A stretch of 64,000 bases of DNA from Octopus sinensis. Taxonomy: Eukaryota. This document shows positions 12,472 through 48,762 of the stretch, piece by piece. The DNA lies in the NCBI RefSeq assembly GCF_006345805.1, contig NC_043006.1, forward strand, positions 42,284,001 through 42,348,000. Reading direction: 5' to 3'. The position numbers and the translations under genes were made by a program. Numbering within the stretch: the stretch's first letter is position 1; every line of letters starts with the position of its first letter. Under the pieces are notes generated by a model that did not search any database, was not told the origin of the DNA, and saw only the letters and a list, made by a program, of their open reading frames with translations.

Positions 12472-12511
<40 letters not shown>

Positions 12512-12960
12512 GGGTACAGGACGTCGCCAACAATAAACACATGAATACGAAAACAAATGAATTCATATGCAATCAGCAAGAGAAACAAATGGAAAACAGG
12601 ACATAAACAACGAACCTTCATCACATGCCGGCTATCTACTTTTCATTTCGAGCATTGAACGACAGTATGAGTCTTCGAAGACTGTTGCTCCCATAAATAC
12701 CAGAATAAAATTTGTTCCCAACTTTTACCCTCCGTAAATCCCAAATAATATTTTGGTACTTATAGGAGCAACTATTTTCGAAAAACTCATATTGTCGTTC
12801 ATTGCTCGAAATTAGGAGTAGATAGACAGCGAACAACTGACAAAGGGCCGTTCTTTATGTTACTTGTCCTGTTTTTCATTTGTTTCTCTCGTTGTTTGTG
12901 TATTGAACTCATTTGTTTTTTGTATTTCATGTTGTTTACTGCCGGTGACGTCCTGTACCC
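12512..12960. mobile_element. Palindromic insertion in (TA)n, Penelope-like pLTR-type repeat
   Basis: Diverged inverted arms of ~200 bp (GGGTACAGGACGTC...GACGTCCTGTACCC). The right arm is homologous to 22320-22565. Confidence 0.75.
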
Positions 12961-12967
12961 ATATATG

Positions 12968-19254: not shown

Positions 19255-20110
19255 TGTGTGGTCTAGTTAAGGACCTAGAAGAAGACTGGAGGACTGGTAA
19301 TGCGGACCAAGCGAGGGTGAAAAGACTGGGGTTAAACCAGCATCTTGAAGTTCAACACATGGGAAGTATTGCCAGAGCTAAGTTACGTGCGATGGGAAGT
19401 GAAGGAATCAAGGCCGCTAGATGGGCCCGAGTGGTGGAAGCTCAGCAAGGAAATAGTTCCACTATTCGGTCTTTGACGAATCAAAATAGTGTCTTGGTAA
19501 ACGAACCCGAGAAAATGTGTGAGGCCTTTCAGAAGTACTTCGCCCAACTATTCAGGGGTGACGGTGGTCCTGGTGGTGGGAGACTTTCTTGCCGGGCTGC
19601 CGTGTTTCTCGGGGTCGGATGCGGAGTCTTGCGACGGGCCAATCACGCCTGTGGAGGTGATGGAGGCTTTGGCGGACTGTAAAACGGGTAAATCGCCAGG
19701 AATTGATGGTCTTCCGTACGAGCTGTATAAATGTATGCCAGACTTGTTCGGGCAACTACTGGCTGACGTGTACGCGGACTGGCAACAGAATGGGTTTATC
19801 CCCAGATCTGTACGCCGAGGAGTAGTGACGTTGGTCAGAAAGGACCCGGACAAGTGAGACGTTATAGAGAATTTCAGGCCCATCACTCTGTTAAACGCAG
19901 AAGTGAAGATTTTGGCCAAGGTCTTAGCAAAAAGGTTGGCGCGTGTCGCGAATGGTATAGTCGGAGAGGCTCAGACATGTGCCATCCCAGGTAGAACCAT
20001 TCAGGATACCCTCCATCTTATTCGCTATACCATAGAGAGGGTTGGTTATAAATCTGGCGGAAGCCTAGTGTTCTCGTAGACCGAGATTCGAGTGAATGGC
20101 ATAAAGAGTG
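19255..20110 (+). mobile_element. Tx1/L1-group LINE ORF2 fragment (start of the RT domain), pseudogenised
   Basis: KSPGIDGLPYELYK...GVVTLVRKDPDK*DVIENFRPITLLNAEVKILAKVLAKRL...QTCAIPGRTIQD. One frameshift and one stop. Confidence 0.9.
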
Positions 20111-22269: not shown

Positions 22270-22565
22270 CATGTTTGTTTTCGTTTAGTTTGTCGTATGT
22301 CGCCACTGTCCTGTTTTTGTTACCAACTCTGACCCTCCACAAATCCCGAATTTTATTTTGGTTCGCGGAAGCAACTGTTTTTCGAAGCCCCATATTGTCG
22401 TGAATTGCTCGAAATGTGGAGTAGATGAAGAGCCGACAACTGATGAAGGGTCGTTCTTTATGTTACTTGTCTTGTTTTCCATTTGTCTCTCTCGTTGTTC
22501 GTATACCCAAGTTTGCCTTCGTATTTCATGCTGCTTACGTTTTGTGACGTCCTGTATCCATATAT
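22270..22565 (+). mobile_element. Repeat of the 12.5-kb family, carrying a candidate permuted hammerhead (22388-22451)
   Basis: Homologous to 12720-12960. Contains CATA-TTGTCG...GCTC-GAAA-TGTGG...CGACAA-CTGATGA-AGGGT. Confidence 0.7.
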
Positions 22566-43826: not shown

Positions 43827-43849
43827 ATATAATATATATATATATACAT

Positions 43850-44215
43850 ATGGAACAAAAATGTAATAGAGGACAATAAAACATCCGGACGGATAGACGA
43901 TACAAAGGCGGACAGGAAAAACAACAATTAGGGAAAAGGGGCGGATCATTCGTGGCCTTCTTTCGTCAGTCGAGTTACCAGATGTCCTTACAGTTTCGGG
44001 CAGTTACACTTGAGACTGTTCGATCTGGTTCCCTCCAAATAAAAGTCTAAGCTAAGAGCATCACATTTTTTGTAAGAAAGCTAGCGAATGTATACGACAA
44101 AAAATGGAAAACTTGGTACACAATTAAAAGTACAAACAACAATAATATAACGACAGGTGTCTATCGACTGAGCTGGCGTATATAAAGTGAAAGTCTTAAA
44201 GCAAGAACATAGATG
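43850..44215 (-). mobile_element. (TA)n-embedded repeat carrying a candidate permuted hammerhead (43955-44020)
   Basis: Minus strand ACAGUC-UCAAGU...GCCC-GAAA-CUGU...ACUCGA-CUGACGA. Confidence 0.55.
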
Positions 44216-44327: not shown

Positions 44328-44375
44328 CATATATATATATATATAATATATATATGTATATATATATATATACCA

Positions 44376-44650
44376 CGTGACCGACCAGTCTATCAGATGT
44401 TGCTACACATCGCTTTGTTTTAGCCTTCAGATGACGCCACCCCTCTGGCTAAGCGAGCAGGTCAACAAAAGAAAGAGTGAGAGAAAGTTGCGGCGAAAGA
44501 GTACAGCAGGGATCGCCACCACCCCCTGCCAGAGCCTCGTGGAGCTATCGGTGTTTTCGCTCAATAAACACTCACAACGCTTGGTCTGGGAATCGAAACC
44601 GCGATCACATGACCGCGAGTCCCCTGCCCTAACCACTGGACCATTGCGCC
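44376..44650 (-). mobile_element. SINE family C, near full length
   Basis: Minus strand GGCGCAATGGTCCAGTGGTTAGGGCAGGGGACTCGCGGTC...GGTTTCGATTCCC. Confidence 0.85.
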
Positions 44651-48203: not shown

Positions 48204-48342
48204 TTTATTTACATTCCCCGGATATTTGTCCTCATCTTGTTTGTTGTTAACACAACGATTCGTCTGATATACCCTCCAGCCTTCTTCGGGTGTCTTGGGG
48301 AAATTTCGAACCTGGGTTCTCATTCCTATGGCATTTTTCGAT

Positions 48343-48374
<32 letters not shown>

Positions 48375-48505
48375 CATTTAGATCACTGTCTGGAATCGAA
48401 CTCGGAAACCACTACGCCATATGTCCACGGGCATATGGCGTAATGGTTAAGAGCGCGGGCTACTAACCCCAAGATTCCGAGTTCGATTCTAAGCAGTGAC
48501 AGAAC

Positions 48506-48561
<56 letters not shown>

Positions 48562-48762
48562 TAATAATAATAATAATAACAACAACAGCAAAATCGAAAA
48601 ATACCTTAGGAATGAGAACCCAGGTTCGAAATTTCCCCAAGACACCTGAAGAAGGCTGGAAGGTATATCAGCCGAAACGTTGTGTTAACAACAAAGAAGA
48701 TGAGGACAAATATCCGTCAAATGTAAATAATGTACATAATTCCTCATCTCTTAAATATAGAC
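48204..48762. mobile_element. Head-to-head palindromic tRNA-headed, hammerhead-bearing retroelement nested in a family A SINE
   Basis: Centre CCATATGTCC-AC-GGGCATATGG. Right arm: A box TGGCGTAATGG, B box GAGTTCGATTC, (AAT)n, hammerhead, tail. The left arm is the inverted, internally deleted copy. The host SINE resumes after CTAGTA (cf. CTGGTA before the insertion). Confidence 0.8.
48641..48686 (+). ncRNA. Minimal type I hammerhead ribozyme (predicted)
   Basis: GACAC-CUGAAGA-A-GGCUG-(10 nt)-CAGCC-GAAAC-GUU^GUGUU. 5-bp stems I and II and a loopless palindromic stem III as in Penelope-type minimal HHRs. Confidence 0.8.

Follow-up and report, generated by a model that had tools for sequence, protein, structure and literature searches.

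A predicted split-core hammerhead motif in octopus repeats and in the 3' UTRs of LINEs with a restriction-like endonuclease

Introduction

The locus described here raises the question of whether three short strands in an octopus repeat, lying in the order cleavage site–GAAA–CUGANGA, belong to a permuted hammerhead ribozyme or to a chance arrangement. The window, i.e. the whole stretch of DNA analysed, comprises 64,000 nucleotides of the Octopus sinensis genome (contig NC_043006.1, positions 42,284,001 to 42,348,000), and all positions below are counted from its first letter. Hammerheads with this order are known as 'type SGC'; Eckert et al. 2023 (PMC10085705) demonstrated their cleavage and detected them in metatranscriptomes alone. 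The same report derives six possible permutations of the hammerhead, assuming that CUGANGA and its neighbouring stem strands are inseparable.

Results

The copy in the window

All three strands that the initial annotation had read on the minus strand are found at their places: ACAGUC^UCAAGU (44019-44008), GCCC-GAAA-CUGU (44001-43990) and ACUCGA-CUGACGA (43975-43963). As it had stated, stem III is paired at 5/5 positions, stem I at 5/6, and the site is a GUC triplet. The strands lie in a 5'-truncated minus-strand copy of an interspersed non-coding repeat, F2 (unit of about 713-762 nt), which is set in (TA)n and spans 43849-44215, with approximate ends.

Read 5' to 3' on the minus strand, the motif begins with the 5' strand of helix IV (44037-44047), the partner of the strand after CUGANGA; this helix is weak and U/G-rich in F2, carries an extra A in the window copy and is well supported in other families. 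It is followed by the 5' strand of stem II (44029-44034), located upstream of the cleavage site, which reads GGGCA in F2 and AGGGA in the window copy, where three G-C pairs are possible in a register slipped by one. The 5' strand of helix P0 (44023-44029), equivalent to helix 'I' of type-SGC ribozymes, leads to the non-bulged strand (C-GA) of a kink-turn consensus between P0 and stem III (44020-44022). The 3' strand of stem III and the GUC triplet occupy 44014-44019, with the predicted cut between 44014 and 44013, and the 3' strand of stem I follows at 44008-44013. The 3' strand of stem II, UGCCC (43998-44002), ends in C11.1 and is continued by the GAAA core and the 5' strand of stem III (43990-43997), the bulged strand (AAG-GA-C) of the kink-turn consensus (43984-43989) and the 3' strand of P0 (43977-43983), which makes 7/7 pairs with 44029-44023. 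The last elements are the 5' strand of stem I (43970-43975), the intact catalytic strand CUGACGA (43963-43969) and, directly after A9, the 3' strand of helix IV (43954-43962).

The stem I mismatch is a U-to-C change private to the window copy, a U being present at 43972 in 29 of 30 F2 copies. In these 30 copies, the second pair of stem III covaries (A-U in 18, U-A in 7, wobble in 3, unpaired or gap in 2), and every fixed column of the core is kept in 27-30, with N7 variable and the window copy intact. The window copy retains the core, P0 and the kink-turn consensus and carries changes at 44034 and 44031 (stem II) and at 43972 (stem I). It is a mutated, decayed element, and the ribozyme predicted from it would probably be weak or dead.

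A related motif, of family F1, lies on the plus strand at 22331-22452, with a predicted cut after 22394 and a loop-E-type internal loop in place of the kink-turn. Its helix IV pairs 22331-22336 with 22447-22452, its stem II pairs 22369-22373 with 22406-22410, and hairpin V spans 22337-22368. A decayed F1-type copy (12711-12961, plus strand) has an inverted partial copy on its 5' side (12511-12712, minus strand), and this arrangement (12511-12961 in all) is typical of Penelope-like insertions. Three further features of the window were recorded. Another short repeat between TA tracts, presumably a tRNA-type SINE, lies directly upstream of the F2 copy (44370-44650) and is also present in locus L281; the segment 19654-19938 on the plus strand weakly resembles a LINE reverse transcriptase (tblastn, E 1e-5); and an inverted repeat of 170 nt, 92% complementary and with arms 186 nt apart, is located at 48205-48730.

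A single window is weak evidence for the permuted order. The strict descriptor matches it once and finds at least one match in 14 of 200 shuffles, and the search was therefore widened to the 2.7-Gb genome assembly.

Abundance and controls

In 464 kb, made up of the window and 40 blindly chosen stretches, there are 6 matches to the SGC order, compared with 0.4 in shuffles; two of these six matches are inside the window and one (L066) looks like chance. A raised count of the GCS order in the same 464 kb was rejected, being made up of two SGC elements counted twice and one type I element. F2 gave 3322 first-look candidates in the genome, and the best relatives of the window copy are 78-84% identical to it.

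The initial annotation had proposed that genome match counts be compared with controls. Two patterns of the motif match 12,680 and 10,759 times, compared with 316 and 327 times in reversed controls, a 33- to 40-fold enrichment. When loci were read by eye, the motif was present in 29/30 and 26/30 (55/60 for the two patterns together), which places the number of copies with an intact core near 20,000. The Rfam hammerhead families produced no match at the gathering score in nine motif loci, and there is no hammerhead among the Rfam matches listed for the window (150 of 246).

Stem II and the fold across families

The permuted order is real and recurs in many families, with the cross-family covariation that had been suggested for it and with genome counts far above chance. 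F1 and F2 had been called unrelated. They indeed have no BLAST-level similarity, but share the block order and the near-identical spacing that had been pointed out (24 and 25 nt from GAAA to CUGANGA), and are probably related by common descent, so they would not be independent inventions. Stem II had been described as poorly formed in the window copy. It is weak there, but it had been sought in the wrong place: its partner lies upstream, F2 itself has a stem II, and the weakness of this copy is due to the substitutions at 44034 and 44031. Helices P0, IV and, in many families, V had been missed.

In F2, the partner of the strand that precedes GAAA is not the one behind CUGANGA but a strand located 5' of the cleavage site. 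The upstream pairing is GGGCA/UGCCC in F2, GAGCA/UGCUC in F1 (the family at 22388), GGCUG/CAGCC in F3 and F4, and GAAGG/CCUUC in F5 and others. Of 130 distinct copies, 94 have a complete upstream partner (5/5) and 37 a complete contiguous one (4/4). The upstream stem II is 95% paired and perfect (5/5) in 25 of 33 clusters formed at 75% identity, compared with a mean of 16% and a maximum of 36% in a swap null; three low-complexity copies and one cut-off locus were dropped from this set, and stems I and III are part of the selection filter. G10.1 is present in 31/33 clusters and C11.1 in 32/33.

The strand after A9 pairs further upstream, forming helix IV, and hairpin V is often located between helix IV and stem II. 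P0 bridges the distal ends of these two outer stems, I and II, and both of its strands are tied to stem III. A kink-turn connects two stems by a 3-nt bulge and then tandem G-A/A-G pairs; its consensus lies between stem III and P0 in 19/33 clusters, F2 included, and is missing from the other 14, and a loop-E pattern is present in 5/33. The elements are arranged as IVa-(hairpin V)-IIa-P0a-loop-IIIb-UH^-Ib-link-IIb-GAAA-IIIa-loop-P0b-Ia-CUGANGA-IVb, with covariation in every helix. The F2 group has a weak helix IV. F1-type families have a further option for the strand behind CUGANGA, a contiguous stem II of 4 bp that includes wobbles and a bulged base, and in F4 the contiguous stem is absent. Single-sequence minimum free energy folds give only the nested helices, and not in every case. 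The predicted fold equals a type-SGC hammerhead in which the P0/III arm links the ends and the insertion of helix IV (and V) opens the chain between A9 and 10.1.

The motif in LINE 3' UTRs

A distant family, F8, constitutes the 3' UTR of a LINE that encodes a restriction-like endonuclease (RLE). The relatives of its C-terminal RLE domain are fish reverse transcriptase proteins, up to 87% identical, including Q7T1J8 and Q76IN2, and we take this LINE and its fish relatives to belong to the HERO/Zebulon group of RLE non-LTR retrotransposons. Zebulon has a tandem structure. An independent set of 80 metagenome loci was chosen by the LINE protein alone. F8 and these loci have an RLE-type C-terminus, and RVT_1 is present in full-length relatives. 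The set contains 54 usable loci; the other 26 lack a mappable C-terminus or 200 nt behind it. The full motif is present in 37 of the 54 LINE 3' ends and in 2 of 2700 shuffles. Ten of the other 17 ends carry it with one lesion, and seven lack it.

In the 37 LINE motifs, the upstream stem II is complete (5/5) in 31 and helix IV (6/6) in 32; the contiguous stem II (4/4) is complete in 4. Covariation was assessed on a plain MAFFT alignment, not fitted to structure, of 24 of the 37 motifs, from which near-duplicates had been cut and in which one row is misaligned. On this alignment, 87.7% of the cells pair, 26/32 pairs vary on both sides, and all six helices covary. The pairing score is 0.634, compared with 0.198 for shuffled and at most 0.196 for slid alignments. 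The upstream stem II is 95% paired versus 35% for the contiguous one, and P0 is 95% paired with three of its five pairs compensatory. Kinship among the LINEs can inflate the shuffle control, but the identity of their endonuclease domains ranges over 38-87%. RNAalifold recovers only P0 and stem III from the same alignment. The NUH rule was examined by leaving positions 16.1 and 17 free: 42 of 45 matches read U-A/C/U, and none of the 45 has G at position 17.

The motif is located about 100 nt from the 3' end of these LINEs. Of the 33 loci with more than 200 nt downstream, 8 have another ORF that begins 200-340 nt past the core, in head-to-tail tandems, so that a ribozyme in the 3' UTR would make the 5' end of the following unit. 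Several LINE ORFs continue into the motif (rows P0061, P0075, P0098 and P0106 of alignment A1), and hairpin V and stem II are therefore partly coding. The C-terminal domain of the RLE-type LINE of this genome is 84-87% identical to fish proteins (L330:1657-1986, minus strand; L311-L330); horizontal transfer of the LINE is suggested. No relative of the LINE protein was found in the viral contigs searched.

Genomic 5' ends at the predicted cut

Cutting of the templates should yield copies whose 5' ends lie immediately 3' of the site. Among 82 pattern matches of the F3/F4 group, 19 have their 5' ends in the 15 nt between the cut and GAAA, where 2.9 are expected, and one in the next 15 nt (microsatellites masked; 7 of 89 matches without a family partner left out). 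The same number was obtained with 72 F3 copies chosen without the motif, in genome order, by a 25-mer located 94 nt downstream: 19 ends fall at 0 to +14, two of them exactly at the cut, one at -15 to -1, and 0-6 in every other 15-nt bin. Another set (17/94), which included loci chosen for diversity, was not relied on. The mapping covers F3 and its close relatives, not F2. The pile-up of ends just 3' of the site suggests cleavage in vivo, as far as the positions of genomic ends can reveal it.

The ends of the F3 copies peak not at 0 but at +10 to +12, the start of the stem II 3' strand. Annealing of the AT-rich linker to the (TA)n target (microhomology) would explain this peak, and so would polymerase stalling. 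The cut site is spanned by 39 of the 72 F3 copies, which means that many templates were uncut or re-ligated.

Host element of F2 and its relatives

F2 and its relatives (448-831 nt) are non-coding units with no ORF. They occur as partial tandems with inverted 5' pieces and a short tail, at (TA)n targets. Partial tandems, inverted partial copies, 5' truncation and (TA)n targets are reported as traits of Penelope-like insertions (PMC8557442). The octopus genome has intact Penelope-type elements that encode a reverse transcriptase and a GIY-YIG domain, and F2 is likely mobilised in trans by such a reverse transcriptase. The motif is, however, absent from the own terminal repeat of all 20 Penelope-type stretches examined (of 147 scored GIY-YIG matches and 5029 candidates), none of which shares the F2 ends. 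No autonomous partner of F2 was found by the GIY-YIG search, in the 20 stretches, or by tblastn of Penelope-like and LINE proteins against the fetched loci. Three F5 copies near the ends of Penelope-like elements were considered as a link to the host and rejected: full-length copies of these elements lack the motif, and the F5 copies are therefore read as insertions at a shared target. In L212:2700-2950, an F5 copy is joined straight to the 3' end of a Penelope-type element with no TA tract, possibly by a template switch.

Two Penelope-type families among the 20 stretches bear ordinary type I minimal hammerhead-like motifs. Intact two-ORF elements are found in L221-L223 and L227 (3' repeats) and in L224 and L228; of the families in L221-L224, L227 and L228, one bears a minimal hammerhead of type I in which stem III is palindromic, and the other a variant core with U for the initial C. 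Another type I hammerhead family (L067:7960-8040; L260, L261) has a stem II, GGCUG/CAGCC, identical to that of F3 and F4, and an evolutionary link between them is possible. The F1, F2 and F3 units (e.g. L119, L011, L032) have a GTAAGT splice-donor-like site near their start, followed by a long pyrimidine tract, and contigs that cover units of these types skip 75-77 nt inside the unit.

Discussion

The motif is a conserved multi-helix RNA that contains all core nucleotides of the hammerhead, arranged as stem II 5' strand–cleavage site–GAAA–CUGANGA. It probably self-cleaves after the NUH triplet (at 44014 in the window copy), cutting tandem retrotransposon transcripts into units. With more caution, we lean towards a broader reading, in which a seventh natural hammerhead topology, with CUGANGA split from stem II, a four- or five-way junction and a closing kink-turn, would be the usual 3' element of an entire LINE clade throughout the animals, would have been taken up by non-coding Penelope-like repeats and carried by them to more than 20,000 copies in the octopus genome, and would be active in vivo.

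In the proposed mechanism, the kink-turn between stem III and P0 would bend the arm back, and the stem III loop would pair twice, in stems I and II, within one molecule. Self-cleavage after the NUH triplet would then release unit-length RNA from tandem transcripts. Reverse transcriptase would start near the 3' end of the element, 140-165 nt downstream of the cut, and would either run off at the cut or read through uncut or re-ligated circular RNA, giving partial tandems. A Penelope-type reverse transcriptase acting in trans probably serves F2. In the HERO-like LINEs, the 5' end of each following unit would be generated by the ribozyme that terminates the unit before it.

The monomeric fold has a rival in a dimer, in which the IV-V-P0-III rods of tandem copies would associate, the stem III loop of one copy pairing (stems I and II) with IIa and Ia-CUGANGA of the other, so that only multimers would be cut. 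The elements do occur as tandems, 14 of the 33 clusters are without a kink-turn, and five have the loop-E pattern, which is expected to hold the arm straight; with such an unbent arm, a monomer could not fold back on itself. Moreover, the minimal hammerheads in the terminal or tandem repeats of Penelope-like elements, for which a role in cutting multimeric transcripts has been proposed, reportedly function in dimeric form (Cervera and de la Pena 2014, PMC4209133). Against this, the kink-turn consensus lies exactly where a monomer needs a sharp bend in the remaining 19 clusters, and stem III is not palindromic; a direct junction of helix I and stem III has been noted in some type-SGC ribozymes, and the type-SGC RNAs tested cleave as single constructs (PMC10085705). 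Dimers as the active form are, on balance, unlikely.

The RNA could also be a folded, non-catalytic descendant of a hammerhead, serving as a binding site for the reverse transcriptase or as a block to reverse transcription, with the pile-up of 5' ends produced by stalling of the polymerase. R2 has established RT-binding structures near its 3' end, the LINE motif lies where such structures are expected, and the peak of ends is displaced by 10-12 nt from the predicted cut to the start of the stem II 3' strand. We nevertheless regard loss of catalysis as improbable: the catalytic nucleotides and the exclusion of G at position 17 have been kept across the divergent endonuclease domains, and the number of ends falls, exactly at the cut, from 19 on its 3' side to 1 on its 5' side, though P0, II and IV continue upstream of it. 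Very little speaks for an ordinary but decayed type-SGC ribozyme with stem II contiguous to CUGANGA, as the initial annotation had assumed. The F1-type contiguous stem, possible in 37 of the 130 copies, fits this description, but on the LINE alignment and in F4 that stem is mostly unpaired or absent, and the strand after CUGANGA pairs in helix IV instead. Finally, a chance arrangement of short motifs in a repeat, which the shuffles matched by the single window might suggest, can practically be dismissed in view of the genome-wide enrichment, the 37 of 54 protein-chosen loci and the covariation of six helices. The reading of the motif as a self-cleaving monomer is therefore preferred.

The motif escapes Rfam and standard descriptors, yet is abundant in animal DNA. 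Non-circularly permuted hammerheads were previously reported only from environmental RNA, and the motif breaks the assumption of their discoverers that the CUGANGA block is unsplittable (PMC10085705). It offers tandem RLE-type LINEs a concrete, predicted RNA-processing step, and the footprint of 5' ends bears on whether the hammerheads of retroelements cut their template in vivo. A seventh topology, if real and active, would explain the tandem transposition of these LINEs and would imply a large overlooked class of genomic ribozymes.

Comparison with known systems

As a hammerhead, the motif has C3-U4-G5-A6-N7-G8-A9, G12-A13-A14-A15.1, an NUH site, covarying stems I-III and G10.1-C11.1 in its sequence. 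With type SGC (HRIMA-1 and variants, PMC10085705) it shares the site/GAAA/CUGANGA order, the short link between stems I and II, the full core and the helix that joins the distal ends of these stems, P0 being the 'I' of type SGC. In contrast to type SGC as described there, block C is split, a stem II strand lies 5' of the site, helices IV and V are located at A9/10.1, and P0 is tied to stem III by both strands via a kink-turn or a loop-E-type loop. A stem II strand directly after CUGANGA, with at most 1-2 nt inserted, is characteristic of type SGC; here that strand is 35% paired and complete in 4/37 LINE motifs, and the motif thus resembles type SGC in its predicted working, yet is not a member. 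The predicted split-core topology lies outside the six permutations derived by Eckert et al. Type SGC is reported from metatranscriptomes only, whereas the split-core motif is genomic and very abundant.

In the literature searched, most subscription journals lying outside it, no description was found of the split-core topology or of a hammerhead in the 3' UTRs of HERO-like LINEs. Variants with additional helices are mentioned in the accessible part of PMC13725137 (2026); of the three sources it cites, Eckert et al. is one, and another, PMC10162972, does not describe the split-core form in the portion available. Eight 'HHR_half_core' elements, with the second half of the core 35-50 nt away on either side, are reported in the accessible part of PMC8557442 and may be the split-core motif.

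Like the Penelope-like minimal type I hammerheads, in which stem II begins 5' with an unpaired base, showing that the A9/10.1 position tolerates insertion (PMC4209133), the motif occurs in retroelement repeats, is proposed to cut multimers and has an insertion at that position. As described in the same source, those hammerheads are type I circular permutations that have little or no stem III and act as dimers; the motif differs in its full stem III, non-circular order and six helices. Non-autonomous Penelope-like elements and the non-LTR retrozymes of animals share with F2 the non-coding tandem units, 5' truncation, inverted partial copies and (TA)n targets, but F2-type units are 450-830 nt long, their ribozyme is not type I, and no autonomous partner with the same ends was found. 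HERO/Zebulon LINEs share the C-terminal RLE domain and the head-to-tail tandems with F8 and the metagenome loci, in contrast to F2, which is non-coding and has no LINE 3' terminus in common with them. The HDV-like ribozyme at the 5' end of R2 (PMC7650587) is, as predicted for the motif, a self-cleaving RNA that frees the RNA of the element from a longer transcript; it belongs to another ribozyme class, and the motif, located in the 3' UTR, would act on the next unit of the tandem.
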